Part shown: positions 42,563-60,212 of the stretch, piece after piece
How positions within the stretch are numbered: the first letter of the stretch is position 1
How the letters are laid out: each line of letters opens with the position of its first letter
Assembly (NCBI GenBank): GCA_963665295.1
Contig: OY762209.1
Location: 1,472,001 to 1,536,000, forward strand
Direction: 5' to 3'
Length of the DNA stretch: 64,000 bases
Origin: Syntrophorhabdaceae bacterium
Lineage (GTDB): Bacteria; Desulfobacterota; Syntrophorhabdia; Syntrophorhabdales; Syntrophorhabdaceae
The notes under the pieces: generated by a model
What the model was told of the DNA's origin: nothing
What the model saw: the letters and a program-made list of their open reading frames with translations, nothing else
Database searches by the model: none
Position numbers and translations under genes: made by a program

Positions 42563-42645
42563 AAGGTGAAGCGCCCGTGACCTGCGTCGTCGGGTCCGCC
42601 CCAAGACGACAACCAACGGGGTGCCGCTGTCGGAGTCTGTTTCCT

Positions 42646-43809
42646 ATGGAAAAAAAGCCCAGGCTGACCATAATCTCCTCTTCTTCGGGTACCGCCTTCG
42701 GCGGCCTGGAGACCTATGTCATCAACGAGGCGAAGTACCTTTCCGACCGTTTTGCCGTAGCCCTGCTTGTGGGCAAAGGCCCCCTCACGGAAGACTTCAA
42801 GGACATGGTCAACCTGCAGGATTCCGTAACATATCGCACCCTCCCCTTCATCGGGCGGGCTTCTTCCCTGTCTTCGCTGCCGGAGAGGATCGGCATTCAA
42901 GGGAAGATACACTCATTCGACATTGAAGCCCTCAGCATACTGCCCGCTCTTGCCCGTATGAAAAGGGTGATGAACGAGTCGGACATAGTAGAAGTCCATT
43001 ATCCCACGGAGGGCCTGATCCTGCCTTTCATCGCAAAGGGGCCCAGAAAGGTGATGCACTTTCATGGACCGTGGCTGCCGCCCCTCTACAACCGTCTGAA
43101 GAAATGGATCAACAGGCGCGTGGATCTCCTTGTCACCTGTAGTGACTGGAGCAGATCGGAGATGGAGAGACTTTACGGCGTCAAGGGACTTGAAGTGGCG
43201 TACAACGGCGTAGACGAGGAAGTCTTCAAGCCCCGGGAAGTAACCACTTTTCGGACCGACCACCCATACGACAGGGAGTTGCCGAGAATAGGGACCGTGG
43301 GTCGCCTCGGTGAAGCGAAAGGAACGGACCTTCTCTGTGATGTGGCCGGGGAGCTTCAAGGGACCGCCGAATTCTTTGCCGTGGGTCCATGTGATGAGGC
43401 GTTCCTGAAAAAGATGGGCCAGGGCGGACAACCGGGAAATTTCCATTTCCTGGGGCCATATCCCAACAGTCATCTGCCGGGGTTCTACAATTTTATCGAC
43501 TGCTTCGTCCTGCCGTCCCAACTGGAGGCCTTCGGCATAACCGTTCTTGAAGCCATGGCGTCAGGCACGCCGGTCATCGCGTCCCGCACCGGCGGGATTC
43601 CGGAAATCGTTGATGACGGGGTTAACGGAATTCTTGTGCCCCCCGGGGACAAGGGAGCGCTCCGGAACGCGGTCCTGACCGTAGTGAAAGATAAAGCCAT
43701 GAGGGACAGGATGGCGAAAGCGGCGAGAGAAAAGGTGATGTCCCGGTTCACCCATCGAAAAACGTACGACCGCCTTGCCTGTCTCTATGAAGAATTACTC
43801 GGGTCCTGA
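42646..43809 (+). CDS. Glycosyltransferase family 4
   Basis: YNGVD, PSQLEAFGITVLEAMASG, GGIPEIV; start at ATG 42646 inferred. Confidence 0.9.
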   Translation: MEKKPRLTIISSSSGTAFGGLETYVINEAKYLSDRFAVALLVGKGPLTEDFKDMVNLQDSVTYRTLPFIGRASSLSSLPERIGIQGKIHSFDIEALSILPALARMKRVMNESDIVEVHYPTEGLILPFIAKGPRKVMHFHGPWLPPLYNRLKKWINRRVDLLVTCSDWSRSEMERLYGVKGLEVAYNGVDEEVFKPREVTTFRTDHPYDRELPRIGTVGRLGEAKGTDLLCDVAGELQGTAEFFAVGPCDEAFLKKMGQGGQPGNFHFLGPYPNSHLPGFYNFIDCFVLPSQLEAFGITVLEAMASGTPVIASRTGGIPEIVDDGVNGILVPPGDKGALRNAVLTVVKDKAMRDRMAKAAREKVMSRFTHRKTYDRLACLYEELLGS

Positions 43810-43896
43810 GAAGCTCCTCACGGGGGGCTTCGGAAAGAAGACGGGTCCTGATCGGGGAAGATTAACAATTCACGAAAGTTGTGGTATAAGGTCACT

Positions 43897-44493
43897 ATGA
43901 ACCAGAAGAACATGGGGTCCATAAAAAGGGGTTCGCCCCTGCTTGCCCTGTTGAGGGTGATAGGGAAGAGGTGCGCGCCGGCGGTGGTCCTCGTGGCGGT
44001 CCTCGCCACTGCATCCTTCGGGGGCGACTGTTTTGTCGCGAAACCGAGCTTCGCGGTCCGGGAGCCCTATCTCATAGAGAAAGTCTGTTATCTTTACGCC
44101 CATGAGAAGCGGGCCTATAAACCGGGCGAACCGGAAGAATCGCAGTTCAGCCAGGTGATGGGCACGGTCGACCTTATCGGCGACCCCCTTCACCGTGATT
44201 TCCTCGAGATGTTGAGGGACGGCAAGTATCTCCCCTTAAGCAGGGGCACCCAGCTCTTCAGTTGCCAGTACGACCTCGAAACGATCAAGCGCGACCGCTC
44301 GGAAGCCCAACTGAAAGGTTATGCCATGCCGGAGTTCGCGTGCGGAGGAGTGATATTCGAGATGGTCCCCGTAAGGCTGAACAATATGAGCATCTGTTAT
44401 TGGGTTGCGGAAGCGGCGGTGAGATGTGACGAGCAAATAAAGTACAAGGTAACCCCCTTTGATCTTTTTGAAGATGAACTGAAACCGGAATAG
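43897..44493 (+). CDS. Hypothetical exported protein
   Basis: Hydrophobic signal-like segment, several Cys; own promoter-like TTAACA-17-TATAAG just upstream. Confidence 0.65.
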   Translation: MNQKNMGSIKRGSPLLALLRVIGKRCAPAVVLVAVLATASFGGDCFVAKPSFAVREPYLIEKVCYLYAHEKRAYKPGEPEESQFSQVMGTVDLIGDPLHRDFLEMLRDGKYLPLSRGTQLFSCQYDLETIKRDRSEAQLKGYAMPEFACGGVIFEMVPVRLNNMSICYWVAEAAVRCDEQIKYKVTPFDLFEDELKPE

Positions 44494-44642
44494 TCTCACC
44501 AGGTTCTGCCCGTGCAGGGAGCCGGGGGATGGGAAAAGGTTGCTTCGTCCCGGCTGTTGCGCCCCGGGCAGGAGACCCCCGATTCCGGAAAAAAAAGCGC
44601 CTGTTCCGCCCTGAAGAAGAGACCACCCGCACCGTATCACAC

Positions 44643-46118
44643 ATGACCTTAAAACATAGAGCCATCCATGCGACGATCTGGAGCGTGATCGAACGGGTAG
44701 GGGCGGAAGCAGTCCGCCTGTCGGTAACCGTAATCCTCGCGAGGCTCCTCCTGCCTGAACAGTATGGGCTTGTCGCCATGTTGTTCGTGTTTCTGGCCCT
44801 CGTCAATGCGTTTATGGACAGCGGGCTCGGCTCGGCCCTCGTGCAGAAAGAGGGAGTGACATCAGCGGATTACTCCTCGGTCTTCTATTTCAATATGTCC
44901 GTGGGCCTGGCGGCATATATCCTGTTCTTTCTCCTGGCACCGCTCATCGCGGCCTTCTACAACGAGCCTAAACTCATCGATCTTACCCGGTTCATGAGCC
45001 TCAGCCTCATCGTGATCGCCGGGGGCATGGTCCAGGGGGTAATCCTGGAAAGGGAGATCAACTTCAAGGTGTTGACGAAGGTGTCTTTCCTTTCCCTGTC
45101 TGTTTCGGGAGTACTTGCGATCTACCTTGCAAGCAGGGGGGCGGGAGTCTGGAGCATCGCCATACAATCCGTGCTCTACTATTCGGTCCGGACGATGCTG
45201 CTGTGGCTCTATGTGGGCTGGCGTCCCGGCCGGGAGTTCAGTATGTCCGCCCTCAAGCCGCTCTACAGCTACGGTTATAAAATCCTCGGATACCGGATGA
45301 TCGAGAGCGCGTTTCAGAATGTGTACACCCTGCTCATCGGGAAATATTTCGGGGCGCGGGAACTCGGGTATTTTACCCAGGCGAGAAACATCCAGGAGTC
45401 AGTGACCACCAACCTGGTGAACATAGTCGAGCGGGTGACCTTTCCTGTCATGGCGAGGATACAGGATGATGACGCCCGTATGAAGTTCGCCTATAAAAGG
45501 GTGCTCCAGTTGCTCGCATTCCTTAACTTCCCCGTAATGTTAGGTATCATGGCCATCGCTCACCCCCTGGTCCGGGTCATGTTTGGAGACAAATGGCTCT
45601 CGTCGGTGCCCTATATCCAGCTTCTCTCGGCCGCCGGGGCCATCTATGCGATTCAGGCCATAAGCACTAACGTGCTGAAGGCGAAAGGCAGGTCGGACCT
45701 TGTCCTTAAGCTGGTGATCTTCAAGAAAGCCATTGCCTTGGGCATGATATTCGCAAGCTTTCCCTGGGGGGTGAAGGGGATATTGGCCGGCTTCGTGATT
45801 GCCTCCGGTTTGGGATTTCTCGTGGACGCCCATTGGTCGGGAGCGCTCATTGCATACCCGCTGAGAGAGCAGGTGCGCGACATACTGCCGCCTGCGGTGC
45901 TGTCTCTGGCAATGGCTTCGGCAACTTATCTCCTGGGCAGCGTCCTGGATGTATCCAGCATCCTCAAGCTCGTGATCCAGATCCCCTTTGCCGTGGGAAT
46001 CTATTTCCTGGGAGTGAAGATTTTTCGCCTCGAAGCCCTGTCGCTATTCTTCGAGGTGGTGAGAACCGGCGTATTCAAGAGGGAAGAGGGCAGCCATGTG
46101 TCCACGGAGCAGGGGTAG
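44643..46118 (+). CDS. Wzx flippase (WzxC/lipopolysaccharide biosynthesis protein family)
   Basis: ILARLLLPEQYGLVAM, GLGSALVQ, LGYFTQA; many TM segments. Confidence 0.92.
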   Translation: MTLKHRAIHATIWSVIERVGAEAVRLSVTVILARLLLPEQYGLVAMLFVFLALVNAFMDSGLGSALVQKEGVTSADYSSVFYFNMSVGLAAYILFFLLAPLIAAFYNEPKLIDLTRFMSLSLIVIAGGMVQGVILEREINFKVLTKVSFLSLSVSGVLAIYLASRGAGVWSIAIQSVLYYSVRTMLLWLYVGWRPGREFSMSALKPLYSYGYKILGYRMIESAFQNVYTLLIGKYFGARELGYFTQARNIQESVTTNLVNIVERVTFPVMARIQDDDARMKFAYKRVLQLLAFLNFPVMLGIMAIAHPLVRVMFGDKWLSSVPYIQLLSAAGAIYAIQAISTNVLKAKGRSDLVLKLVIFKKAIALGMIFASFPWGVKGILAGFVIASGLGFLVDAHWSGALIAYPLREQVRDILPPAVLSLAMASATYLLGSVLDVSSILKLVIQIPFAVGIYFLGVKIFRLEALSLFFEVVRTGVFKREEGSHVSTEQG

Positions 46119-46184
46119 AGCCTCCGTGGAAACCGTAATCGGAAGGATGGCCTTGTCCGGAGACAGATTGGGGGGCAAAGGGTT

Positions 46185-47519
46185 ATGACCGGGGTGGGGC
46201 AGGGATTGAAACAGACGCTCGCAGGCCTCTTCCTGAGGCTCTCGGAAACGGGGAGAGCGCCGTTTATCGTTTCCGTTATCATCCTGGGATATGGTCTCCT
46301 TTCCTGCGTAGTCCTGGGAGACACGATCCGTTTCTGGGATGAGCAAAACTATCTGCAAATCGCGGAATCCCTTGCGAGGCGTTACAGCTTTTCCGCATTC
46401 GACAACGGGCCCACCGCTTTTCGCCCCATAGGATACCCGCTCCTGCTCGCCTGCTGCCTCAAACTCGGCGGGTCGGTGGCGGCCCTCAGGTTTTTGAACT
46501 ACATTGCCCTGGCGGCATGCGCATACATTCTTTATTTCCTCATCCTGAAGAGGACAAAGGGCCGCTACGGCGCCACGATCGCCCCCTTCCTGATCCTTTG
46601 CTACCCGGTCCTGCTCTATACGGCGGGCACGTTATATCCGCAGACCATCGCCTCCGCCATATTTCTGTTTCTTATCTTCCGCCTTACCGATTCCAAACAG
46701 ACCCTGTCGTTCCTGAATGGCGCCCTCACGGGCTTCCTTGTGCTGGTGGTGCCTTCCTTCCTCAGTTTCGTGCCGGTCCTCGGGGCGCTTCCCCTGGTTT
46801 TCACGACCCGTTTTTCGTTCAGGAAGGCCGCAATCTTTTTCGTCGGCGCGGCGCTTATCATCGGGAGTTGGGCGGTAAGAAACTATGTGGTTTTCGACCG
46901 GTTCATTCTCCTTTCGACGAACATGGGTGTCAACCTCTTGCTGGGAAACTCGGGAAACGCTTCACCCAATCGCTCCGTGCTGGTGGACATAACCCCGCAC
47001 GTGAGAGAGGTCGAGAGACTCCGGCTGGACGAAGTGGAGGCGGACCGCTATTATCGGTCCAGGGCCCTGGAATGGATGCGCGCAAACCCGGCGAAGGCTT
47101 TGACCCTCTATTTCGCCAAGGTGCTCAATTATTTCAATTTCTACAACGAACTCGCCACCGAAAACGAACGGGCCATCTGGAAGAACGTGATTATGTTCGT
47201 TACCTATTATCCCCTTCTCCTGTTGATGGTTATCCGCATGTTTCTCCGGCGCCGGGTTCCCGTAAGCAGGATAGAGGTTGTTTTCGTGGCCCTTTACATC
47301 TATAGTGCATTTCTCGCCGCCGTTTTCTTTCCGAGGATCAGGTTCCGCCTTCCCTTCGATTTTCTGGTGATCGGCGTTGCGTCGGCCTTTCTCAATGATT
47401 TTCTGAAAGCGCGCATGCTATCGGGGGATAGCCGGCCCCCCTGTTGCGGTCAAGGGATTAAGGATAGTACGGACCTTGAGGTGGAAGAAGGTCGGAAAGG
47501 GACCCGCGCCACGCCATGA
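46185..47519 (+). CDS. GT-C fold (ArnT/PMT-like) lipid-sugar-dependent glycosyltransferase
   Basis: First-loop WDEQNY..IAESL, AFRPIGYP, WAVRNY, RFRLP; multi-TM. Confidence 0.75.
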   Translation: MTGVGQGLKQTLAGLFLRLSETGRAPFIVSVIILGYGLLSCVVLGDTIRFWDEQNYLQIAESLARRYSFSAFDNGPTAFRPIGYPLLLACCLKLGGSVAALRFLNYIALAACAYILYFLILKRTKGRYGATIAPFLILCYPVLLYTAGTLYPQTIASAIFLFLIFRLTDSKQTLSFLNGALTGFLVLVVPSFLSFVPVLGALPLVFTTRFSFRKAAIFFVGAALIIGSWAVRNYVVFDRFILLSTNMGVNLLLGNSGNASPNRSVLVDITPHVREVERLRLDEVEADRYYRSRALEWMRANPAKALTLYFAKVLNYFNFYNELATENERAIWKNVIMFVTYYPLLLLMVIRMFLRRRVPVSRIEVVFVALYIYSAFLAAVFFPRIRFRLPFDFLVIGVASAFLNDFLKARMLSGDSRPPCCGQGIKDSTDLEVEEGRKGTRATP

Positions 47520-47580
47520 AGAAGGATTTCTCGCGCTTTGCAGGCGATAGTTCGATTACCGGAAAGGAAGGAGTGTAAAA

Positions 47581-48540
47581 ATGGTTTCCCACAATCCAAA
47601 GTCGTTCCCTGCCGTGGACTCCCAGTCCCGACCCATCGTATGCCCTCTTTGTCACGATGACATGATCCGGGAATCCGGGGCGTACAGGTGTGAAGGGTGC
47701 GGGAGGATGTATCCTGAAAGCAGATTCGGTTTCTACGGCTTTCCCGCCGAAGTGAATGACCTTGCCAAGGGTCAGGACCCCGAGTATGTGGAAAGCCAGA
47801 AAGGCCATTCAGCGAGGGTGTACCGCGAGTTTATCCGACCGATTATCCGGCGGGAAAGGACGGAAACTTTTCTGGATGTCGGCTGCGGGCTGGGAGTTCA
47901 GGTAAATCTGGCCGCCGAGGACGGGCACGACGCATACGGGACGGATTTGCCGAACATGGAGCCTTACTGGCATGGAAACGGCAACGACCCTTCCCATTTC
48001 TTCAGCGGTTCGGCGACCAACCTGCCCTTTCGCTCGAACCACTTCGATTTTGTAATCTCCACCGGTGTGGTGGAGCACATAGGGACCACAGAGGATACGG
48101 CGTCCCTCATTTCCACCTACAAGGAAGCCAGACGGAAATATGCGGAGGAAATAATAAGGGTAACGAAGCCGGGCGGGAGAATACTCATTTCCTGTCCGAA
48201 CAAATCATTTCCCATAGATGTTCAGCACGGACCTGCGTGCGGGAAATACCTGAAAGATCTGAGACTCTTCATATTTGACAGGACCAAGATGAATATCCAC
48301 AAAACCTGGGGAAGATATCACCTGCTCTCCTATTCGGAAATGGAGGATCTCTTTTGCCGCCGGGGCAAGGCGAGCAGTCTTGAAGTCCTTCCGCTTACGG
48401 GCTTTTTCGGATTCAAGAAGTTCCAGTCGGGATTCCTGAGGCCTGTTGACAAACTGGTGAGGTTCTACGTCGATAACCTGCCTGCCGTAATCCGGGGCTC
48501 TTGTCTCAACCCGTACACCCTGGTGCTTATAAGAAAATAA
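47581..48540 (+). CDS. Class I SAM-dependent methyltransferase with N-terminal Zn-ribbon-like motif
   Basis: CPLC...CEGC, LDVGCGLG, GVVEHI, RVTKPGG. Confidence 0.88.
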   Translation: MVSHNPKSFPAVDSQSRPIVCPLCHDDMIRESGAYRCEGCGRMYPESRFGFYGFPAEVNDLAKGQDPEYVESQKGHSARVYREFIRPIIRRERTETFLDVGCGLGVQVNLAAEDGHDAYGTDLPNMEPYWHGNGNDPSHFFSGSATNLPFRSNHFDFVISTGVVEHIGTTEDTASLISTYKEARRKYAEEIIRVTKPGGRILISCPNKSFPIDVQHGPACGKYLKDLRLFIFDRTKMNIHKTWGRYHLLSYSEMEDLFCRRGKASSLEVLPLTGFFGFKKFQSGFLRPVDKLVRFYVDNLPAVIRGSCLNPYTLVLIRK

Positions 48541-48601
48541 ACCTCTGTAGCCGCTTCGCGGGCTTCCTCACGTTCTTTAAGGACGAAGGCGGGATGCTCC
48601 A

Positions 48602-50263
48602 ATGTCCCGGTATGCCAAGGCCCTGATGATGAAGACGATGAAAAACTGCGGTCCTTCACAACACGACGTCGCCGGCAGGCTGAGTTACCATTATATGCTG
48701 CTCCTCGGGCTCACGATCTGCGCGGGAGCAGCGTGGTGGCTCTATTTCAGGTTATACACGGATATCATGCTGGAAGACGCGCTGATTACCTACAGGTATG
48801 CCTCCAATATTGCCATGGGCAAAGGGTTCGTGTATAACCAGGGGGAAAGGGTACTGGGCAGCACAACACCCCTCTTGACGCTCCTCCTTGCCCTTTTGGG
48901 GAAGGTGTTCGGTGTCGTCAACATACCGACCATATCTTTCATATTGCTATCGTCGCTGGGAATCCTGACCGGCCCCCTCAATTACCTGATTCTCCGGCAA
49001 CTCGATGTCTCCCGGTTCACTGCCATTGTGGGCGTCATACTGTTTTACGGCAACCGCGACATCATGATCACCGCCGTGGGTGGAATGGAAACACCTCTGG
49101 TCCTCTTTCTTATGGCCTTGAGTTACTATTTCCTCATGGGCAGGCGCTATACCCCCGGCCTTGTGGCCTGCGCCGCGCTGATCCTCACCCGTATCGACGG
49201 AGTTATCTGGGCTGCACTGGTTTTTGCGGTAATGTGCCTTCGGGAGAAGAGAGTGATGATAAAACCCGTCATCCTACCGGCAATTATACTGGCCCCTTGG
49301 TTTATCTTCTCCTGGGCCTATTTCGGCGCCCTTCTGCCGAACACCATCGAAGCGAAGCGGGTCATAGGGAATACGGTAGGAGGGATCTTCTCATACCACA
49401 CGGCATGCGCTTTCGGAGAGTGGTACGGTTGGACCCTGTTGCTCTATTTCGGTAAGAAGCTGGTCCTGTGCACCATTCTGCCCATTGCCGCGGGGTGCCG
49501 GCGGCTTGTGTCCGGCTGGAGAGCGCTCCCCTTCGGACTCATCCCGGTACTCTTTCCCCTTGCGTACGGGGCCTTCCTTTACCTGGGCAAGGCACCCTAT
49601 TTCCCGTGGTACCTGCTGCCCGCCATATGGTGCAGCCTTCTTCTGATCTCCATGGGCTTCGAGGAAATCATCCGCTTTTGCGTGAAAGTGTTCCCCCGCC
49701 CCTATTCGGCCCCTTTATTCAGGGGGGTCCTCCTTGCCTTTGTCGTCTTCGTCCTGTTCTTTGTGCACAACAAGGGCATCCTCGACCATTCCTACAAATA
49801 TCAGAGCAACGAGTACAGCACCCGGAAGACCATAGGCCTGTGGCTTCGCGATAACACGCCCCCCGGGAGCGCCGTTGCCATGGAGGCCATAGGCTACCAG
49901 GGGTATTACAGCAACAGGAGGATCGTGGACTTCGCCGGGCTGGTAAGCCCCCGTGTCGTGGATATCCGCAAAAGGAGCCGGTCGAACGCGGAAGCTTTCT
50001 ACGGGATACTTCGCACCCTCGAACCCGATTACCTCGTGCTCAGGTCTTTCGAGGTCGACCGGAACATGCACTTTCACGGAGGACCCCTGTTTGAAAACAG
50101 GGAACAACGCGCCTTCTTTATGGACCATTACGGTGAGATCAAAAGGTTTATCGCTCCTTACCCCGAAGTGTGGGGGGAATATGCCGGTCTCGTAATCTAC
50201 AAGAAGAAGACGGGCTCCCGCCCGGAGGCGTCCGGGTCTGTTGAGGGCCGGACAGGGCGATGA
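48602..50263 (+). CDS. GT-C fold membrane glycosyltransferase, arabinofuranosyltransferase-like
   Basis: EDALITYRYASNIAMGKGFVYNQGERVLGSTTPL, GMETPL, TRIDG, LPNTIEAK, IVDFAGLV. Confidence 0.75.
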   Translation: MSRYAKALMMKTMKNCGPSQHDVAGRLSYHYMLLLGLTICAGAAWWLYFRLYTDIMLEDALITYRYASNIAMGKGFVYNQGERVLGSTTPLLTLLLALLGKVFGVVNIPTISFILLSSLGILTGPLNYLILRQLDVSRFTAIVGVILFYGNRDIMITAVGGMETPLVLFLMALSYYFLMGRRYTPGLVACAALILTRIDGVIWAALVFAVMCLREKRVMIKPVILPAIILAPWFIFSWAYFGALLPNTIEAKRVIGNTVGGIFSYHTACAFGEWYGWTLLLYFGKKLVLCTILPIAAGCRRLVSGWRALPFGLIPVLFPLAYGAFLYLGKAPYFPWYLLPAIWCSLLLISMGFEEIIRFCVKVFPRPYSAPLFRGVLLAFVVFVLFFVHNKGILDHSYKYQSNEYSTRKTIGLWLRDNTPPGSAVAMEAIGYQGYYSNRRIVDFAGLVSPRVVDIRKRSRSNAEAFYGILRTLEPDYLVLRSFEVDRNMHFHGGPLFENREQRAFFMDHYGEIKRFIAPYPEVWGEYAGLVIYKKKTGSRPEASGSVEGRTGR

Positions 50264-50808
50264 GACCGGCGGCGACGGACATACCCTTGTGCGTGGACCT
50301 CGACGGCACCCTTGTCCGGACCGATATGCTGCGGGAAACGATGTGGTCCATGGTCAATGGCAACCCGCTCCTGGCCTTCGTCGCACCCTTCTGGTTGTTG
50401 GGCGGCAGGGCATGTCTGAAGCAGCAGGTAGCGCGCAGGGCAAAGGTCGATATGACGCGCATCCCTTTCCACGAGGATCTGTTGGCATATCTGCGGGACC
50501 AGCGCAACCGGGGGCGAAGGCTGGTGCTTGCCACCGCGTCGGACTCCCTGGTGGCGGCGCGGATAGCCGAACATACGGGGTTCTTCTCGGACGTCCTTTC
50601 CAGCGACGGCAGTGTGAACCTTAAAGGGAAGGAGAAGCTCCAGGTCCTCCTCGAAAAGTACGGGGACCGCAAGTTCGATTACGCGGGCAATTCACAGGCC
50701 GACATCCCCCTGTGGCAGCACTGCAACCGGGCCATCCTGGTGAATGTGAGCGACCGGCTTCTGGAGACGGTCCGCGCCATGGCAGTGATCGACAGGGTAT
50801 TCAAATGA
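50260..50808 (+). CDS. HAD-like phosphatase (putative polyprenyl-phosphoribose-5-phosphate phosphatase)
   Basis: PLCVDLDGTL, LVLATAS, NLKG, FDYAGNS..D. Confidence 0.85.
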   Translation: MRPAATDIPLCVDLDGTLVRTDMLRETMWSMVNGNPLLAFVAPFWLLGGRACLKQQVARRAKVDMTRIPFHEDLLAYLRDQRNRGRRLVLATASDSLVAARIAEHTGFFSDVLSSDGSVNLKGKEKLQVLLEKYGDRKFDYAGNSQADIPLWQHCNRAILVNVSDRLLETVRAMAVIDRVFK

Positions 50809-50852
50809 AGGGAAGTATCATATAATATAGTGGCTTTTCTCGGCCGGGAGGT

Positions 50853-51950
50853 ATGGCAGTGGCAAAATCTATTGTGTCGGTGATAAAAACGCGTCCCCAG
50901 AGCGTGCTTGAGGACATAGAAGGCCTCATGATCAGGGGGGGCGTGAAGGATGCATTGCAGAAGGACAGGGTAACCATCCTGAAGGACAACATTTCATGGC
51001 ATTTCCCTTACCTGAGCGCGAACACCACCCCCTGGCAACTCGAGGGCGCGATCAAAACCCTTGAGAAATGCGGCTTCGGGAAGATTACGACGGTCCACAA
51101 CAATACGGTGGTTACCGACCCGTTCAGAGGTGGAAACCTGAACAGGCTCACTCCCCTGTATAAGAAGTACGGCATAGAGGAAAGGTATAATTTCAAACCT
51201 GAAGATACGGACTGGATCGTGTACCGGCCCAAGGCGAAGATGCGGGTCCTCGACAAGATATATCCGGAAGGCATCAGGATACCGGAATATTTTGTGGGAA
51301 AGAATATCATCCACCTTCCCACGGTAAAGACCCACATCTATACCACCACCACGGGGGCGATGAAGAATGCTTTCGGCGGACTGTTGAATACGAAGAGGCA
51401 TTATACCCACAGTTGGATTCACGAGACCCTCGTGGACCTGCTGGCCATTCAAAAAGAGGTGCACTCCGGCATATTCGCCCTTATGGACGGGACGATATGC
51501 GGGAACGGCCCCGGTCCGAGGACGATGATCCCGGTAGTGAAGAATTACATGCTCGCCGGTTCGGACTGCGTTGCCATCGATGCGGTGGCGGCGAAAATGA
51601 TGGGTTTCGACCCCATGGAAATCCCCTATATCAGGATGGCCCACGAAGCGGGCCTCGGCACAGGGAAGGTCGAGGAGATCGACGTGGTGGGTGAACCGAT
51701 CGAGCACATAAATTTCAGGTTCACCGTGGGAGACAACATGGCGAGCAAGGTGGGGGACCTTATCTGGTTCAGCCCTTTCAAATCGCTTCAGAAGCTCTTT
51801 GTACGCACCCCCCTCGTCTACTTTTTCGTTTTCGGCTCATTCTTCTACCATGATTACCTGTGGTGGCCCCTTAAAGGCAAGGGCCTCCAGAAAACGGTGC
51901 GCCGGTCGGAATGGGGAAAGCTGTTCGAAAGTTATCCTGAAGGAAAGTGA
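50853..51950 (+). CDS. DUF362 domain protein
   Basis: LKDNISWH, LPTVKTH...TGAMKNAFG, DGTICGNGPGP, VAIDAVAAKMMGFDP..IPYI..A...GLG. Confidence 0.85.
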   Translation: MAVAKSIVSVIKTRPQSVLEDIEGLMIRGGVKDALQKDRVTILKDNISWHFPYLSANTTPWQLEGAIKTLEKCGFGKITTVHNNTVVTDPFRGGNLNRLTPLYKKYGIEERYNFKPEDTDWIVYRPKAKMRVLDKIYPEGIRIPEYFVGKNIIHLPTVKTHIYTTTTGAMKNAFGGLLNTKRHYTHSWIHETLVDLLAIQKEVHSGIFALMDGTICGNGPGPRTMIPVVKNYMLAGSDCVAIDAVAAKMMGFDPMEIPYIRMAHEAGLGTGKVEEIDVVGEPIEHINFRFTVGDNMASKVGDLIWFSPFKSLQKLFVRTPLVYFFVFGSFFYHDYLWWPLKGKGLQKTVRRSEWGKLFESYPEGK

Positions 51951-51997
51951 CAATTGAAGATGAATCCGGCTGAACGGTTATCCGGCAAAGGGGGCTG

Positions 51998-52864
51998 ATG
52001 TACGATACCATCCGATTGCTGAGGGTGCCCCATTATGTGAAGAACCTGTTTATCTTCATGCCCCTGTTCTTCGCGGCAAGGATCACCGAAGTCCCCACCC
52101 TGTTCAGGGCATTTCTTGCCTTCATTGCCTTCTCGGCCGTGGCGAGCGCGGTCTATATCTTTAACGATTTAAGGGATATCGCCGAAGACCGCCTGCACCC
52201 CACGAAGAAAGACCGGCCCCTCGCGTCGGGTGCCGTGGCAACCCACTTCGCCCTGGCTGTGATGGCGGCGCTGATCCTTATCGGATTGACCGCCTCATGG
52301 TTCATCCATCCGGGACTCTTTCAGATCGTTCTCTTCTATGCGGCGCTGAACGGTTTTTATGCCATCAAACTGAAACATGTGCCCATTATAGACATCTTCA
52401 TCGTGGCCCTGGGCTTCGTGATACGGGTTTTTGTGGGCGGCGTGGTTACCGATACAAGAGTATCCATGTGGATAGTCGTGATGACCTTCCTGTTGGCCCT
52501 GTTTATCGCCTTGGGCAAACGGCGGGACGACATCCTGATTCTCCTGAGAGAGGATAAGCGGACAAGAAAGGCCCTCGACGGCTACAACCTTCAATTTATC
52601 GATTCGGCCATGATAATAATGGCAGCGGTAACGATAGTGGCCTATATCATGTTTACCACGTCGACGGATGTGCTCATGAAATTCCATTCCGACAAGCTTT
52701 ATGTGACCACCCTCTTTGTGGTGCTGGGAATCATGCGCTACATGCAGATCATCTTCGTCGAAGAAAACGCCTCGTCGCCCACGACCATCCTCATCAGAGA
52801 CCGGTTCATCCAACTATCCATAGTCGGGTGGCTTTGCCTCTTCGGATTCATAATCTACCGATGA
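51998..52864 (+). CDS. UbiA-family polyprenyl-phosphate phosphoribosyltransferase (DPPR synthase-like)
   Basis: LLRVPHYVKNLFIF, YIFNDLRDIAEDRLHPTKKDRPLASG, ALGKRR. Confidence 0.9.
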   Translation: MYDTIRLLRVPHYVKNLFIFMPLFFAARITEVPTLFRAFLAFIAFSAVASAVYIFNDLRDIAEDRLHPTKKDRPLASGAVATHFALAVMAALILIGLTASWFIHPGLFQIVLFYAALNGFYAIKLKHVPIIDIFIVALGFVIRVFVGGVVTDTRVSMWIVVMTFLLALFIALGKRRDDILILLREDKRTRKALDGYNLQFIDSAMIIMAAVTIVAYIMFTTSTDVLMKFHSDKLYVTTLFVVLGIMRYMQIIFVEENASSPTTILIRDRFIQLSIVGWLCLFGFIIYR

Positions 52865-53262
52865 ACCTGGCCCTCAAGTATACCCTTTTTGCTGCCTTAT
52901 CCACTGTCGCCAATATTGGAGCCCAGTATTTCTGTCTCTATTTGTACCGCAGGAAGTTCTCCCTCTACATCGCCATGTTCGCGGGCACGGCGATAGGGCT
53001 GGTATTGAAGTACCTTCTTGACAAGAAATATATCTTTTACTATGAAGTGGTGAACAAACGCGAGGACCTGGGGAAATTTGTCCTTTATTCCATGATGGGC
53101 GTGTTGACCACCTTTATCTTCTGGTGTTTCGAGATCACCTTCCATGCTCTGTTCAACTTCCCGTCAGCGAAATTCATCGGGGCTGTCGTGGGTCTCTCCA
53201 TCGGATATATTTCCAAATACAACCTCGATAAGCGGTTCGTTTTCGTCAAAACGAGACAGTGA
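52861..53262 (+). CDS. GtrA family small membrane protein (lipid-sugar flippase-like)
   Basis: Four TM segments, KYLLDKKYIF, KYNLDKRFVF; ATGA overlap. Confidence 0.85.
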   Translation: MNLALKYTLFAALSTVANIGAQYFCLYLYRRKFSLYIAMFAGTAIGLVLKYLLDKKYIFYYEVVNKREDLGKFVLYSMMGVLTTFIFWCFEITFHALFNFPSAKFIGAVVGLSIGYISKYNLDKRFVFVKTRQ

Positions 53263-53291
53263 AATGGGCGGCTCTGAGAAAGGAGATTAGT

Positions 53292-55667
53292 GTGAAACTG
53301 CGCGAATGGTGTATGGTTTTCATTACAGCCCTCGCAATGGTGTTCCCTTCATGCGGCGACGCGACCCAGGGGACGGCCCAACCCTCCGAGCCCATTACCG
53401 TGGTCCATATCGGTCCCGTGGCGCCGGACATCATAGGGGTGACCATCAAGGCGGGCCGTGTCGAACACGGGCAACAGGTCCCCTATCAGAAGGAAAAAAC
53501 CGATGTGGTTCAGAAAGACAACCTGGACATCGCGTGGGTCCTGAGAGGGGGTAAACGTATCGGGGCCCTGGTGGGGGACGGTTCCCTCATCTATACGGCG
53601 GACCGGTTGGTAGGGGAGAAACTCGATACGGATTTGGCGGACAGACCGGAGACGTACACCCTCAAGTCGGCTGAAGACCCCGGGATGGTGAACGGCGCTT
53701 CCCCCAAAGCGGTATTCAGAAAGAGCAAACCCACGGACCTGGCGCGGGGCGCAGGTTTTGAGGCGTCCCTGCAACATATCGTCTACCTCAAGCTTGCCGC
53801 GCCCCTCAAAGCGGGAAAGAAATACACCCTGGCCTTCAAGTCCATCGGAATTCCTGAACAGAGTTTCACCTACGATCCAACGGCCATGAGGAGCGAGGCG
53901 GTCCACGTGAGCCACATCGGATTCAGGCCGGACGACCCGTCCAAGGTCGCATTCCTCTCCCTCTGGATGGGCAGCGGCAATGGCGTCGATTTTCAGAATA
54001 ACAAGAAGTTCCTTCTCCTGGAGGATAAGAGCGGAACGAAGGTCTTCGAAGGGGATGTAAGACTGTCGAAGCGGGCCTCGGACGTCAACGAGGACGCCTA
54101 CAACCGGAATTTCAATGGAGTCGATGTATACATGATGGACTTCAGCGCCTTTCGCACGCCGGGGACCTATCGTGTCTGTGCGGAAGGAGTAGGCTGCTCC
54201 TATGCCTTTGAGATCGCCGAAGATGTGTGGAGGAAGGCGTTCTACGTCTCTGTCCGGGGGCTCTACCACCAGCGAAGCGGTATCGAGATCGGACCTCCCT
54301 TCACCACCTTCAAGCGGCCGCGGAACTTTTATCCTGGCGACGGGGTGAAGGTATACGCGTCGAAAACGACCCTCATGGAGACCTCGAACGGTCTCAGCAA
54401 ATCTCCGGAACACGGCGGGGCCATGCTGATGGCTAAAAGGACCCGGGAGATCGTGCCCGACGCATGGGGCGGGTACTGCGATGCGGGCGATTGGGACCGC
54501 CGTATCCAGCACCTTGACGCGGCGAGGCTGCTATTGGACCTCATGTATGAGTTTCCTTCATATTTCGACAAGATGAGCCTCAACATACCGAAGTCCTATG
54601 CCATCGCCGCGGACGTGGCGAACGAAGCATTGTGGGGTGTCGATTTTTACAAGCGCCTTCAGATGCCCGATGGTGGAGTGAGAGGCGGCATAGAGACCGA
54701 GGATCACCCGAGGTATGGTGAAACGAGCTGGCAGCAATCACACACGGTAATGGCATACGCCCCCGATGTCTGGAGCACCAGCCTCTATGCGGGAGTGGCC
54801 GCCAAAGCGGCATTCGTGATGAGTAAGGTTGACAAAAAGATGTCGGCCCAATATGAAGAAAGCGCGGTCCGGGCAATGAGGTGGGCTGAAAAAGAGTTCA
54901 AGAGCCACCCGTCTTCTTTCTATCCGCAGGAAGCGAGAGATGCGCGAAACCTTGCCGCAGCGGAGTTGTTCCGGGCGACAGGGGCAAAGGAATGGCATGA
55001 CCTGTTTCTCGCCACCACCCAGCTAAAGAACCCCGACGCACCCCTGCGCCGGCATGAGAGCTATGACCACAGCGAGGGCGCATGGGTCTATTACAGAACG
55101 GAAAGACCGGGAATGGATATGTCGGTGAAACGGAATTGCAGGAATGGTCTGGTCACGGACGCGGAGGAACGCATCATGGCGCAGAAGAAGACGGGTTTCC
55201 GTATCGCCAAGAGCCAATGGAGACCGGCATTCGGAGGGGTCTTTTCCACTCCGGACTGCATACCGGTCATCAGGGCCCACTCCATTACGGGGGATCAGCG
55301 GTACCTTCAGGCCGCGGTGCTTTCGGCACAGACGGGCGCAGGCGCGAACCCGCTCAATGTGTCGTACACCACGGGAGTGGGGCACGTCTACCCCCAAAAT
55401 GTCTTTCACTATGATTCGAGGATTACGGGGCAGCCCTGTCCTCCCGGCATCACCGTGGAGGGGCCTTTGGACCCTGAATTTGTCGGCGGATGGAAGTCGC
55501 CTCTTCACGAGGCCGTGGGGCGCTTCTGCTATCCCAATGCCAGGGAATGGCCCATAATCGAGGACTACTGGGATGTATTCTGGTACGCCATGATGGACGA
55601 ATTCACCATCTTTCAGACTATAGGGCCCAACGCCTATGTGTGGGGATACCTGGCCGCGAGGAAATAG
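53292..55667 (+). CDS. Glycoside hydrolase family 9 with N-terminal Ig-like domain, probable lipoprotein
   Basis: VHVSHIGFRPDDPSK, GLYHQRSG, GGYCDAGD, GANPLNVSYTTGVG, C-terminal DEFT; GTG start after AAGGAG (alternative start 53259). Confidence 0.88.
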   Translation: MKLREWCMVFITALAMVFPSCGDATQGTAQPSEPITVVHIGPVAPDIIGVTIKAGRVEHGQQVPYQKEKTDVVQKDNLDIAWVLRGGKRIGALVGDGSLIYTADRLVGEKLDTDLADRPETYTLKSAEDPGMVNGASPKAVFRKSKPTDLARGAGFEASLQHIVYLKLAAPLKAGKKYTLAFKSIGIPEQSFTYDPTAMRSEAVHVSHIGFRPDDPSKVAFLSLWMGSGNGVDFQNNKKFLLLEDKSGTKVFEGDVRLSKRASDVNEDAYNRNFNGVDVYMMDFSAFRTPGTYRVCAEGVGCSYAFEIAEDVWRKAFYVSVRGLYHQRSGIEIGPPFTTFKRPRNFYPGDGVKVYASKTTLMETSNGLSKSPEHGGAMLMAKRTREIVPDAWGGYCDAGDWDRRIQHLDAARLLLDLMYEFPSYFDKMSLNIPKSYAIAADVANEALWGVDFYKRLQMPDGGVRGGIETEDHPRYGETSWQQSHTVMAYAPDVWSTSLYAGVAAKAAFVMSKVDKKMSAQYEESAVRAMRWAEKEFKSHPSSFYPQEARDARNLAAAELFRATGAKEWHDLFLATTQLKNPDAPLRRHESYDHSEGAWVYYRTERPGMDMSVKRNCRNGLVTDAEERIMAQKKTGFRIAKSQWRPAFGGVFSTPDCIPVIRAHSITGDQRYLQAAVLSAQTGAGANPLNVSYTTGVGHVYPQNVFHYDSRITGQPCPPGITVEGPLDPEFVGGWKSPLHEAVGRFCYPNAREWPIIEDYWDVFWYAMMDEFTIFQTIGPNAYVWGYLAARK

Positions 55668-55679
55668 CTGTCGGGGCGA

Positions 55680-56666
55680 TCACCCCGCCTCCTTCCGGGA
55701 CCGGACCAGCCCGCTGAAGAGGAGGGAGAGGAGCCTGGCATGGGGGAACACATAGAAGACGAGGAGAAGGGGTCCGAAGGAACCTGCGAGAAACGTGCAG
55801 GGAACGATCAGGTATCCTGCCGCTCCGAGGCGGTGGAGCAGGAAATACGTGGGAAAAATGAAGAAGTACTGGAGTAGGTAAATCGAGAAGGAATACTTCC
55901 CGAGGGTCTCGAGCGTACGGACGGGGAAGTATCTCATATAAGAGAAGCAGATCGAGATTACGAAGGCTATTCCCGGGAGGGCGGTAAAGAAACCCAGGAA
56001 TTGGATGCCCGTCTTTTTGCGGACCAGATAAGCGATAAGGAAAATGAGGAAGGCGACGAGGGAGACTTCCTTTCTTTTCATGAAGGAGAGGAACCTGTCC
56101 TGTACGGTGAAAGCCTTGAGCCCGAGGTAATAGTACATTGAATAGTAGAGGACGAGGCCGATACCGAAAGCCTCTATATCCGGTCGGAAAAACTGAAATA
56201 CGAGGAGAAGGCCGAAAAGCGGATAGGGGTTGACCTTCGACAGAAGGGGGCTTATCGCCTGGATCATGATGATCGTATAAAGGAACCAGAGGAAAAGGGC
56301 GGGGTTTCTTGAAGGGTAGACCAGTATATCAAAGGGAAGTTCCCCCGGAACTACAGGCCTCAACGCGAACTGGGGGACGAAATACTTGATGAGCCCATAG
56401 GCTGCGCTCACCGTAAGATAGGGGATTATCAGGTAGACCAGTCTTGAGGGAACAACCGCCACCCACTCCCGGAGAGATCCGATCCGGGCAAGTTTCGAAG
56501 AGAAGAACCCGGAAAGGAAGAAGAACAAAGGCATATGGAACGCATAAATGAGACTGAAAAGGTGTGGGAAGACGGTCCCCACCGGCTCGCTGTGACCGAT
56601 GGTCACGAGAAGTATGCCGATGCCCCGGGCTACCTGCATTTCCTGTATATATCTATTCTCCGCCAT
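55680..56666 (-). CDS. Acyltransferase family 3 (OafA-like) membrane O-acyltransferase
   Basis: ARGIGILLVTIGH, FHMPLFFFLSGF, LWFL, LGKYSFSIYL. Confidence 0.9.
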   Translation of the reverse strand: MAENRYIQEMQVARGIGILLVTIGHSEPVGTVFPHLFSLIYAFHMPLFFFLSGFFSSKLARIGSLREWVAVVPSRLVYLIIPYLTVSAAYGLIKYFVPQFALRPVVPGELPFDILVYPSRNPALFLWFLYTIIMIQAISPLLSKVNPYPLFGLLLVFQFFRPDIEAFGIGLVLYYSMYYYLGLKAFTVQDRFLSFMKRKEVSLVAFLIFLIAYLVRKKTGIQFLGFFTALPGIAFVISICFSYMRYFPVRTLETLGKYSFSIYLLQYFFIFPTYFLLHRLGAAGYLIVPCTFLAGSFGPLLLVFYVFPHARLLSLLFSGLVRSRKEAG

Positions 56667-56752
56667 GGTATGTTGTATACTTCATTACAAAGAATTCATA
56701 TTTGTCAAGGCAAACCTGATTTGACTCCCCGGTGGAGGGGGTGTGAGGCGAC

Positions 56753-57496
56753 ATGAATATCGGCAAACTGAAGACGGTATGGGACAGGGTGGGCCGGGAA
56801 GACCCGCTGTGGGCGATCCTGGGCGACCCTCTGAAGAAGGGCGGCAAATGGGACCTCGATGGATTTTTCGAGACGGGTATTGTTGCAGTCGACCGGGTCA
56901 TGGATCATCTCGGATCTCTGGGGGTGAAGACAGGGAACGGGAAGGCCCTCGATTTCGGCTGCGGCGTGGGACGGCTGACCAGGTCTCTGCTGAGGTACTT
57001 CGACCAGGTGTATGGCGTGGATCTCGCTCCCTCCATGATCGACCTCGCGGTGAAGTATAACGGGCACCTGCCGGGGTGCAGGTTTTACGCCAATGCGGAG
57101 GATAATCTCGGGGCCTTCGGGGACGGAACCTTCGATTTCATCTATTCGAGTATTACCCTCCAGCACATCGCTCCCCGCTATGCGGAGAATTATATAAGGG
57201 AATTCCTCAGGCTCCTCGTTCCGGGAGGGGGACTGGTCTTTCAGATACCAAGTGAGCCATCGGGCCCGTTAGAGAAAGTAAAATTATTCCTGAGAGGAGT
57301 GCTGCCCGTGTCCGCGCTCCGCGGGTGCCTTCTGTCCGGGCGCGATGGCGGCGCAGCCATAGAGATGCACGGTATAAAGAGAGACAAAGTGGTAAAGATA
57401 GTCGAAGGCGAAGGAGGAAGGGTCGTTGATATCCAAGAGGACCAAAGCGCCGGAAGCCGATGGATAAGCTTGGTGTACTATGTTGTCAAGGGTTGA
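56753..57496 (+). CDS. Class I SAM-dependent methyltransferase
   Basis: ALDFGCGVGRL, ITLQHI, RLLVPGG. Confidence 0.9.
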   Translation: MNIGKLKTVWDRVGREDPLWAILGDPLKKGGKWDLDGFFETGIVAVDRVMDHLGSLGVKTGNGKALDFGCGVGRLTRSLLRYFDQVYGVDLAPSMIDLAVKYNGHLPGCRFYANAEDNLGAFGDGTFDFIYSSITLQHIAPRYAENYIREFLRLLVPGGGLVFQIPSEPSGPLEKVKLFLRGVLPVSALRGCLLSGRDGGAAIEMHGIKRDKVVKIVEGEGGRVVDIQEDQSAGSRWISLVYYVVKG

Positions 57497-57532
57497 CATA
57501 TTGACCGGACCGCCGGATTAGGAGATTGCACT

Positions 57533-59080
57533 ATGGCAGTATTTGCTTTCATATCACTATATGACCAGTCGGCATACGGGATCAAGATATTGTCTTCCTG
57601 CCTGAAACAGGCGGGGCACAAGAGACATATTATTTTCCTGAAGGCCTACGCTACGGGAAAACCGACGGAAAGAGTGCGGGTGTACGAGGGGGAAACCCCC
57701 TGGCAGGGCGTGGGGCCCCACGGCACCCCCTTTGTCTACGCGGTGAGCAATGACATTACGGACACGGAGAAAAAGATTCTCACAGAAACGTTGAGGACCT
57801 TGAAGCCCGACATGATAGGCCTGACCGTCAACTCGCCCCTCAAACAGAGGGCCATAGCGGTGACGGAACACATCAAGGCGGAACTGCCGGGCGTGCCGGT
57901 TATCTGGGGAGGTTTTGAACCGACCTTGCATCCGGAGGATTCGTTGGGATACTGTGATATTGCGTGCAGAGGGGAAGCGGAGCGAACCGTGGTAGAGTTG
58001 GCGGACGCTATCGACGCGGGACGTGATTACCGGTCCATCGGGAACCTTTGCTTCAAGAACGGCGGGTCCTATATAAAGAACGACCTCTACCCTCCGGCGG
58101 ACGTCCTCGACGCCTTGCCGTTCCAGGATTTCGATCACTCGGGCAATTTTCTCATAGAAGGCGATAAGGTGGTGGAGAGCCCGACTATTCTGTCCCATAT
58201 CGAGGGCTTCTACAACACCATATCGGGCCGCGGCTGCGTGTATCAATGCTCGTACTGCTGCGAGCGGTATCTGAAAGAAATCTATAGCCCGCACCCGTTC
58301 CTGCGAAGGCGCAGCCCGGAAGACGTGATCAGGGAACTGACGGAAGTGAAGGAGAAGAATGACCTGAAATACATCATCTTTCAGGATGAAGTTTTTTCCC
58401 ATCAGATGGAATGGCTCGAGAAGTTCGTGCCCCTGTATAAGGAGAAGATAGGCTTGCCTTTCACATGCTATGTAGTACCCTCCACCGATTTTGATTATAA
58501 GATAAGACTTCTCAAGGACGCGGGGCTGAGCAGCACGTGCCTTGCCATCCAGTCCGGATCCAAAAGGATAAACAGGCTCTACAAGAGGAGCTTCAACGAA
58601 GGGCTGACGCTCAAAGCGGCCGCATCCATAACGTCCCTCGGCCTTTCCTTCTATACCGATGTGATAACCTACAATCCGGCGGAAGACGTGGACGACCTGG
58701 AGGATACGTTGAGCACACTGTTGAAGCTTCCCCAGCCTTACGATATCTGTGTGAACAAACTGTATCTCATGCCGGGGACCGAACTGAGCGAGAAGATAAA
58801 GCGCATACAGTTGGACAAGGCTAAAACCAGGTTATTCGACTACTATTCATCTTTATTCTGGATCGCAAGCTATTTCCGGTGCTCAAGGAAGATTGTCGCC
58901 GGAATGAAATCAATTCCCTTGCTTAGAAAACGCCCTGCCTTGCTCAAGCCCGCCCTGCATGTCCTTTCCGTGGTCAGTTGTATGAGCAAGGTAACAAAGA
59001 AAGTGCACAGGCTCAAAGAGACAGGAAGACTGAACTTCACCTTTATAAACGCTTATGTGAGGGCAAAATTGAAGGTTTGA
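57533..59080 (+). CDS. Cobalamin-binding radical SAM protein
   Basis: VIWGGFEPTL, GEAE, SGRGCVYQCSYC, FQDEVF, IQSGS. Confidence 0.9.
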   Translation: MAVFAFISLYDQSAYGIKILSSCLKQAGHKRHIIFLKAYATGKPTERVRVYEGETPWQGVGPHGTPFVYAVSNDITDTEKKILTETLRTLKPDMIGLTVNSPLKQRAIAVTEHIKAELPGVPVIWGGFEPTLHPEDSLGYCDIACRGEAERTVVELADAIDAGRDYRSIGNLCFKNGGSYIKNDLYPPADVLDALPFQDFDHSGNFLIEGDKVVESPTILSHIEGFYNTISGRGCVYQCSYCCERYLKEIYSPHPFLRRRSPEDVIRELTEVKEKNDLKYIIFQDEVFSHQMEWLEKFVPLYKEKIGLPFTCYVVPSTDFDYKIRLLKDAGLSSTCLAIQSGSKRINRLYKRSFNEGLTLKAAASITSLGLSFYTDVITYNPAEDVDDLEDTLSTLLKLPQPYDICVNKLYLMPGTELSEKIKRIQLDKAKTRLFDYYSSLFWIASYFRCSRKIVAGMKSIPLLRKRPALLKPALHVLSVVSCMSKVTKKVHRLKETGRLNFTFINAYVRAKLKV

Positions 59081-59157
59081 GAAAACGGCCCGGCTTGGCC
59101 CGGCAACAGACGCTTCCCGGGGTATGTCTCCGGCAGGCAGGAGGTTATACACGTTGT

Positions 59158-60063
59158 ATGGATATTATGGAGACAGATGATCGCAGCGCCGGAGGCGACG
59201 AAGCCCGCATATGGGACAAGGTCTATCGCGACCTGAGGAGTTGCGGTCTCTATGGCACGGACGACATTCAAACCTTCCTTTCCGAATGCGAGGAACGGCA
59301 TCTCATCCCTTTTCACCTCGGAGGCCTTCCCAAGGGCTATGCGGTGGGCTCAGCGCTTCAGCGCTTATCGGGGATGATAGAAGGCAGGGCTTCCGGTGAT
59401 ATGGATGTTACCGTTCTCGATATCGGTTCCGGACTGGGAGACCTCACTGTGTATATGGCGCTCAAATACCCGGATGTAAGGTTTGTCGGTATCGACACCT
59501 CCCGGGAGGCAAAGACGTGGGGGGAGACCCTTGCAGGGAGGTTCGGCGCAGGCAATGCTTCCTTCCTGTGCGAGAACGTCAGGAACACATCCCTCCCGGA
59601 CAAAAGCATAGACTTCCTCATCGGTTTCGGTGCTCTTCATCACTTCATAGGGGAAAAGGGAACAAATCACGAGTTAAAAAGGATTCTCAGGAAGCACGGG
59701 AAAGGCGTCTTTATTGATTCCTTCCATGAGAACTATGCGTACAGGCTCTTTCATAACAAAAGACAGATGAAGGAACTTGGCGATGAGTTGATGACGAGGA
59801 AGAGAATCAGGGGTTTTTGGGGCGAAGAATTCGATACGGAAATAATCCCCACCGACTGGATGGTCATGGTTGACAAGCTGATCCTTTATTTCCGTAAACG
59901 TCTCCTGAAAGAAGAAAGGGTCCTCCGGGCACAAAGGCATCTCTCAAAACTACTGTTCTCTATCGACAGGCGCATAGACCGTTTGCCTAAGCGGATTACG
60001 ATGGGCTTTACAGGGTCTGTTCTTACCCTGGTGAAAAAGAGGGGCCGGGAACCGGCTCCTTAG
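59158..60063 (+). CDS. Class I SAM-dependent methyltransferase
   Basis: VLDIGSGLG, GALHH, RILRKHG; start ATG 59158 or 59167. Confidence 0.85.
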   Translation: MDIMETDDRSAGGDEARIWDKVYRDLRSCGLYGTDDIQTFLSECEERHLIPFHLGGLPKGYAVGSALQRLSGMIEGRASGDMDVTVLDIGSGLGDLTVYMALKYPDVRFVGIDTSREAKTWGETLAGRFGAGNASFLCENVRNTSLPDKSIDFLIGFGALHHFIGEKGTNHELKRILRKHGKGVFIDSFHENYAYRLFHNKRQMKELGDELMTRKRIRGFWGEEFDTEIIPTDWMVMVDKLILYFRKRLLKEERVLRAQRHLSKLLFSIDRRIDRLPKRITMGFTGSVLTLVKKRGREPAP

Positions 60064-60114
60064 GGAAAAGTGAGCGGGGAGGAAGAATTTCGCGGTGTTA
60101 CACACAGAAAGTTG

Positions 60115-60143
60115 TTGACATTAAAAGATTCATACAGTAAGTA
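60115..60143 (+). promoter_or_regulatory. Candidate internal sigma70 promoter
   Basis: TTGACA-17-TAAGTA in an AT-rich intergenic gap. Confidence 0.4.
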
Positions 60144-60212
60144 TTTCCTAGCATGCATATCGATGCGCATCCCGAAATGGTTCCTTATGAAAATTAAGAG
60201 TGAGGTTTATCG

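Follow-up and report, generated by a model that had tools for sequence, protein, structure and literature searches.

The subject of this report is a five-gene module at positions 48602..53262 of a 64,000-nucleotide stretch of DNA (the window) from a Syntrophorhabdaceae bacterium (GenBank assembly GCA_963665295.1, contig OY762209.1, positions 1,472,001 to 1,536,000), in which a DUF362 protein is encoded among the genes of a predicted polyprenyl-phospho-pentose pathway. As the original prediction held, genes for a GT-C membrane glycosyltransferase, a HAD phosphatase, a DUF362 protein, a UbiA-type synthase and a GtrA protein lie here co-oriented and tightly packed on the forward strand. The GT-C gene (48602..50263) overlaps the phosphatase gene (50260..50808) by 4 bases. 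The DUF362 gene follows at 50853..51950, with its likely start at GTG 50859 as indicated by ribosome-site spacing and a 363-residue database call, and is succeeded by the gene for a polyprenyl-phosphate phosphoribosyltransferase (51998..52864), a UbiA protein of the decaprenylphosphoryl-5-phosphoribose (DPPR) synthase type. The gtrA gene (52828..53262), encoding a small membrane protein and predicted flippase, probably starts at ATG 52861, overlapping the ubiA stop codon.

The synthase scores 253 bits against the decaprenyl-phosphate phosphoribosyltransferase model NF008977 (cut-off 234), matches PDB entry 8j8j (E 2.1e-37) and carries the motifs ND..D...D and R..E/D, as NDLRDIAED at 56 and KRRDD at 174; it is the only DPPR synthase in the genome. 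The phosphatase, with a DLDGT motif and a match to PF12710 (E 2.7e-9), aligns with the HAD-UbiA fusion model PRK08238 over its N-terminal half (NF006088 positions 9–185, E 3.7e-59) and shares 43% identity with the HAD portion of a synthase of the fused kind. This stand-alone form of the fusion's phosphatase domain is predicted to remove the 5′-phosphate. GtrA is recognised by NF037976 (164.6 bits, cut-off 50) and PF04138, and shares 49–59% identity with the GtrA proteins of dprE1-type operons. No Pfam family matches the GT-C protein. A profile of 117 GT-C sequences compared with PDB sequences retrieved the terminal arabinofuranosyltransferase AftB, its closest characterised sequence relative, at E 5.6e-14 (next 8e-5), and the match to NF041481 (E 3.2e-5) lies far under the cut-off of that model. 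The AlphaFold2 model (pLDDT 91.9) has a GT-C fold, for which Foldseek ranks ALG12 first and AftB second; the donor sugar therefore cannot be read from the fold by itself. Transfer of a pentose from a lipid donor is predicted for this enzyme.

Between phosphatase and synthase, the PF04015 protein (DUF362; E 9.5e-23) is poor in cysteine, as first described (3 Cys), and it lacks the C-terminal cysteine-rich, ferredoxin-like tail present in three of its paralogues. An aromatic, hydrophobic helix at residues 320–338 may contact the membrane. The locus was also said to lack a flavin adenine dinucleotide (FAD) oxidoreductase or short-chain dehydrogenase/reductase (SDR) gene, and none occurs among the 37 open reading frames scanned between 19.4 and 64 kb. 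A search of the whole genome (5.5 Mb in one contig, 98.14% complete) likewise shows dprE1 and dprE2 to be absent: the best scores were 47.7 bits for the DprE1 model (cut-off 500) and 51.5 for that of DprE2 (cut-off 250), and PF04030 gave no match. Genes larB, larC and larE are present in the genome, all above NCBIfam cut-offs, together with two larA homologues.

DprE1 oxidises the 2′-hydroxyl of its lipid-linked sugar and DprE2 reduces the ketone. In enzymes that use the nickel-pincer nucleotide (NPN), a single site both oxidises a secondary alcohol and gives the hydride back. It is proposed, with a probability of about 0.62, that the DUF362 protein is an NPN-dependent polyprenyl-phospho-ribose 2′-epimerase that replaces DprE1 and DprE2 together. 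Such a one-step substitute would fit a protein that depends on the synthase, avoids DprE1, follows larC in its distribution and retains the residues for the cofactor.

Relationship to the LarA fold, as put forward in the original prediction, is borne out by structure prediction. For the AlphaFold model of DUF362 (pLDDT 84.5, pTM 0.87), the ten top Foldseek matches all belong to the LarA family. Re-scoring of Foldseek's top 1000 with VIA-align gave Z-scores of 12.3–14.4 against LarA structures (root-mean-square deviations 3.1–3.9 over 203–226 residues), with the next fold at 5.7. The available part of PMC11770544 places DUF362 in LarA's Pfam clan, CL0471, with PF09861, and identifies in LarA the catalytic residues H108 and H174, the tether K184, the nickel ligand H200 and the phosphate-binding R75. 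In the LarA structure 5HUQ, H174, K184 and H200 are spaced as H-x9-K-x15-H. The corresponding pattern of the DUF362 subfamily, H161-x9-K171-x14-H186, is shared by all 137 of the distinct locus sequences compared, as are K44, N46, W49, N83, K159, R182, H183, H190, D212 and R223. The His-Lys-His spacing alone appears in 4% of shuffles of the DUF362 protein, so it is conservation and fold, not spacing, that carry weight. A LarA profile aligns the three residues in register on a DUF362 paralogue of the same genome (26 bits), and the sole comparison to place the window protein likewise is a weak one between profiles (5% probability); the residue register is based on these two alignments and motif spacing, not on residue-level superposition. 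A sequence search of DUF362 against the PDB returned nothing significant, and the ESM Atlas returned only DUF362 clusters. The cofactor is likely to be the nickel-pincer nucleotide.

Six other DUF362 genes occur in the genome, with best identities to the window protein of 23–32%. The motif His-x9-Lys-x13/15-His is kept in five of them (contig positions 3646401, 3089421, 3470015, 4581691 and 3498717), of which three bear ferredoxin-like tails and one is preceded by what may be an acetyltransferase-like domain. Judged by this motif, generic DUF362 proteins may also bind the pincer cofactor.

All 8,000 scored database candidates are relatives of the window DUF362, the best 119 being 69–76% identical across phyla. 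The predicted linkage between DUF362 and ubiA proved to be conserved across phyla: a DPPR synthase lies in the flanking DNA of 32 of 80 GTDB loci, often directly adjacent, in Bacteroidota, Ignavibacteriota, Chlorobiota, Bacillota, Myxococcota, Planctomycetota, Omnitrophota and Actinomycetota, with direct adjacency in at least seven phyla. None of the 80 loci contains dprE1 or dprE2, and they share no conserved SDR or oxidoreductase neighbour. When the window synthase was used as bait, 80 metagenome loci, many on short contigs, divided into 20 with DprE1 (checked against solved DprE1, E 3e-83), 24 with DUF362, none with both and 36 with neither. In the best 32 synthase relatives, dprE1 follows in 19 and DUF362 in none. 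On a quick tree of 121 synthases, the window's branch (support 98), where gtrA-dprE1-dprE2 normally come next, holds 22 DprE1-linked, 15 unlinked and 2 DUF362-linked rows. Six related genomes, four from the window's family and two from its order, lack synthase and DUF362 alike. The module was probably acquired, with DUF362 replacing dprE1/dprE2 by an in-place swap: the window synthase and GtrA appear to derive from a dprE1/dprE2-type operon.

A true fusion of DUF362 and synthase was sought among 120 long DUF362 homologues and rejected: 113 are intein alleles, and the other 7 mostly resemble read-through or mis-joined calls, one being joined to an LPG-synthase membrane domain. Where read, the intein insertion opens one residue before H161. 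Of the 113, 91 match the full pattern that puts it between K159 and the Cys or Thr preceding H161; in the remaining 22, at least one of the two flanks is recognisable at that site. Conserved active-site motifs are preferred insertion sites of inteins. LAGLIDADG inteins, including mini forms, are widespread in the subfamily in bacteria and archaea (among the names listed are Woesearchaeota and Nanoarchaeota), which is unusual for a cell-surface glycan gene. In four Bacillota loci (L028, L035, L045 and L075), a gene for an ABC1/UbiB-like atypical kinase adjoins synthase and DUF362.

Three genome samples were compared. The first comprised 50 of the 80 carrier genomes, all drafts, 31 of them chosen for having no nearby synthase. 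A synthase was found in 50/50, full-length DprE1 in 4/50, larC in 44/50 and a LarA domain in 25/50; 22 of the 44 larC-positive genomes had no LarA. Among 201 genomes of the window's own phylum, the DUF362 subfamily was present in 29, the synthase in 56, DprE1 in 10 and larC in 181. None of the 29 carriers has DprE1 (versus 10/172 non-carriers), 24 have the synthase and all have larC. The near mutual exclusivity with dprE1 anticipated in the original prediction was found in 241 genomes of a second phylum, that of genome G012 (Polyangiaceae): DUF362 occurs in 65, DprE1 in 139 and both in 3, against 37.5 expected (DprE1 in 3/65 carriers versus 136/176 non-carriers). The synthase occurs in 225 of the 241, including every DUF362 and every DprE1 genome, with 24 synthase-positive genomes carrying neither system. 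Here, larC is present in 65/65 carriers versus 97/176 others; the two phylum samples together have 94 carriers, every one with larC. Within one genus (g32), DprE1 is found in G077 and DUF362 in four other members. A restriction of the module to anaerobes is not supported, since carriers include Polyangiaceae and Sorangium, which have an aerobic lifestyle.

Linkage and exclusion might also be by-products of ancestry or habitat, for instance if anaerobes keep nickel enzymes and lack flavin oxidases, and the labels are indeed clustered on trees. Fisher p values for the co-occurrence counts are overstated, since related genomes are not independent. Kinship was handled with a synthase gene tree, a proxy for the species tree, of 127 of the 241 genomes, picked from rows with listed coordinates (47 DUF362 only, 62 DprE1 only, 2 both and 16 neither). 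On this tree the DUF362 state changes 20–21 times. In 11–12 independent pairs, DprE1 ran opposite to DUF362 in about 8 and in the same direction in 0 (median p 0.008), and larC ran in the same direction in about 5 and opposite in 0 (median p 0.03–0.06). An earlier independent-pairs test (p 0.002) was discarded as circular, having omitted genomes with neither gene, of which the later test adds 16 of 24. The later test, the immediate DUF362–synthase neighbourhood in seven or more phyla and the within-genus swap largely disfavour ancestry or habitat, which is very improbable as an explanation.

Nearly every genome sampled from G012's phylum has a DPPR synthase, in single copy, which suggests a conserved, undescribed pentose-bearing glycan there. 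In 10 hand-picked genomes of that phylum, larB-larC lie beside or within ~11 kb of the DPPR synthase gene; two of the 10 have DprE1 and no DUF362 subfamily gene. A DprE1/DprE2-like pair was also seen in a genome without a DPPR synthase match (G182, L310).

In the proposed mechanism, UbiA would join phosphoribosyl pyrophosphate to polyprenyl phosphate, an activity assigned by analogy with ORF15 of Citrobacter and Rv3806c of mycobacteria, and the HAD protein would take off the 5′-phosphate. DUF362, loaded with NPN made by LarB, LarE and LarC, would tether the cofactor through K171 and hold its nickel through H186. H161 would deprotonate the 2-hydroxyl as the C2 hydride is taken, and the 2-keto intermediate would be held until the hydride is returned to the opposite face, giving polyprenyl-phospho-arabinose with no net redox. 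Having a single catalytic histidine, the enzyme would need the sugar to rotate within its site, as happens in GalE-type epimerases. GtrA would then flip the donor, and the AftB-like GT-C would add arabinofuranose to the polysaccharide of the locus. Of the elements of this scheme, gene identities, co-occurrence, fold and conserved residues are observed, and cofactor binding, substrate, the carbon inverted and the product are predictions.

The original prediction allowed arabinose or xylose as product; of the two, arabinose (inversion at C2) is now favoured, because the exclusion is with the C2 enzyme DprE1 and because the GT-C is closest to AftB. The same NPN chemistry on the same substrate could instead invert C3 and yield lipid-linked xylofuranose, the role of Citrobacter ORF13, with DprE1 exclusion reflecting one pentose per genome. 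Which carbon is attacked is not fixed by the model, and what exclusion shows is that the two systems share a substrate, not that they share a product. Against C3 stand the repeated swaps on a single-copy synthase, the AftB-like GT-C and a pair of genes, for an NAD-dependent epimerase (SDR) and a PRK07233-type flavoprotein, that coexists with both systems, beside DprE1/E2 loci (L108, L117) and DUF362 loci (L045, L323) alike: other candidate epimerases tolerate DUF362, and DprE1 does not. Inversion at C3 is considered unlikely. The pair itself possibly serves further pentose modification.

Several observations weigh against a nickel-pincer 2′-epimerase. No equivalent of LarA H108 or R75 was found in DUF362, position 82 being Q, H or E in a region of weak alignment. 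Profile–profile comparison of DUF362 alignments with 16 LarA sequences (hhalign) was not significant, and the Lar_N profile (PF09861) does not match the window protein. Many divergent representatives of 50% identity clusters lack H161, K171 or H186. The larC association is borderline after tree correction, and in the window's own phylum, where 181/201 genomes (90%) have the gene, it is uninformative. Six of the 50 draft carriers lack larC; four of five re-tested have larB or larE, and in one (G041) none of larB, larC and larE was found. A generic DUF362 occurs in the control genome Bacteroides thetaiotaomicron, which shows no larC. Both systems occur in seven genomes (G013, G020, G024, G027 and G437, with G305 partial and G409 carrying a distant DprE1), and the DUF362 motifs are intact in these seven loci, as checked or partly checked. 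The UbiA genes of five of the 29 own-phylum carriers, which all belong to a single family (f42), include no DPPR synthase (17–20 loci checked), and 47 synthase-positive genomes have neither DprE1 nor DUF362. Finally, GT-C enzymes can be donor-promiscuous, according to the accessible sections of PMC11127046.

Many divergent full-length relatives (for example P0133, P0136, P0143, P0145 and P0158) keep the fold without H161, K171 or H186 and are possible pseudo-enzymes or decaying copies. The known single-histidine LarA homologues lose the H174 position instead, as described in the part of PMC12611868 available. The f42 carriers (L270, L316–L318) have intact motifs, and two of these loci encode a WcaJ-like initiating sugar transferase close to DUF362.

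The missing H108 and R75 equivalents and the larC-negative control genome would also suit a DUF362 that performs one half-reaction, oxidation of the lipid-linked ribose, or that relies on a different cofactor, for example NAD or a simple metal ion, while another enzyme encoded elsewhere finishes the conversion; NPN enzymes that pass hydride between molecules do exist (PMC13524815, in the portion available). This arrangement is improbable, given the lack of a conserved SDR or oxidoreductase neighbour in the 80 loci, the absence of DprE2 from the genome and the presence of larC in every carrier of the two phylum samples. A simply ribosylated glycan, as in Citrobacter O1, is likewise doubtful. 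DUF362 would then act otherwise on the donor, its product or another sugar, which would accommodate the f42 genes without a synthase and the 47 genomes with neither system, and ribose-only systems need no epimerase (available text of PMC11127046). It would leave unexplained the loss of DUF362 where dprE1 is present, which recurs over many independent switches.

The module lies within a Wzx/Wzy-type polysaccharide locus (33734..62811, forward strand), in which a Pfam scan identified an export protein, Wzz, Wzy_C, GT2 and GT4 glycosyltransferases, Wzx, methyltransferases and an initiating sugar transferase; its polysaccharide is the likely acceptor. Upstream on the same strand, 46185..47519 encodes a second multi-membrane protein, possibly another GT-C, which has no Pfam match and shares 28% identity with members of a PMT_2-domain protein cluster. 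A methylated glycan is suggested by three methyltransferase genes and one for a B12-dependent radical SAM protein (47581–48540, 56753–60063). A GH9-family glycoside hydrolase gene (53259–55667) follows gtrA with a 4-base overlap, and a paralogue 42% identical to it lies ~14 kb further on (contig 1541479–1545654). A scan of promoters and terminators gave counts at shuffle level.

If the proposed epimerase is real, its chemistry would be new, with a lipid-linked sugar as the substrate of a pincer enzyme; LarA-fold pincer enzymes are known to act on soluble 2-hydroxy acids. A DUF362 subfamily with over 8,000 relatives in databases would receive its first function, the occurrence of larBCE where larA is absent would be accounted for, and many surface-glycan pathways would gain their missing epimerase. 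Only about a dozen nickel enzymes are known, according to the part of PMC13524815 available. No function for DUF362 was found in the literature searched, outside which lie most subscription papers and supplements, such as Figs S11–S12 of PMC11127046 (further candidate epimerases). A wider statement is given slightly better than even odds: that a lone nickel-pincer ribose-to-arabinose epimerase, working at the membrane, has been swapped repeatedly with DprE1/DprE2 across bacteria, is also present in archaea and is a main client of larA-less larBCE, and that the wider DUF362 family, with the same His-Lys-His motif, is a large unrecognised nickel-pincer branch.

The pathway itself is of a known kind, and the epimerase would be its new element. 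The three-component system of Citrobacter youngae O1/O2 comprises ORF15 (PPPRS-PRP), the flippase ORF14 and ORF12 (GT136), with the SDR ORF13, as presented in the accessible portion of PMC11127046. The same portion assigns DprE1/E2 to arabinose, an SDR to xylose and no epimerase to ribose. Common to this system and the window are a UbiA-type synthase, a HAD phosphatase, a small flippase and a GT-C in a polysaccharide locus. In the window, by contrast, phosphatase and synthase are encoded separately, on either side of DUF362, the flippase is of the GtrA type and the GT-C is AftB-like, and neither an ORF13-like SDR nor DprE1/E2, the only epimerases named in that portion, is encoded. With the mycobacterial pathway (Rv3806c, Rv3807c, DprE1, DprE2, Rv3789 and AftB) the window shares a DPPR synthase, a GtrA-like protein, an AftB-like transferase and, in the present proposal, the same predicted 2-keto intermediate; it differs in having a HAD rather than a PAP2 phosphatase and, in place of an FAD oxidase and SDR, one predicted redox-neutral nickel enzyme. 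Among the NPN-dependent 2-hydroxyacid racemases and epimerases of the LarA superfamily, DUF362 finds its N-terminal fold, the His-x9-Lys-x14/15-His arrangement and the pattern of larC dependence. It is set apart by ~10% identity, by the lack of the LarA C-terminal substrate domain as well as of H108 and R75 equivalents, and by a predicted substrate that is a lipid-linked furanose without a carboxylate. The NPMN-dependent hydride transferase NphT, as described in the available part of PMC13524815, has a TIM-barrel aldo-keto reductase fold, unlike DUF362, and transfers hydride between molecules, yet it demonstrates that a pincer cofactor can take hydride from sugars.

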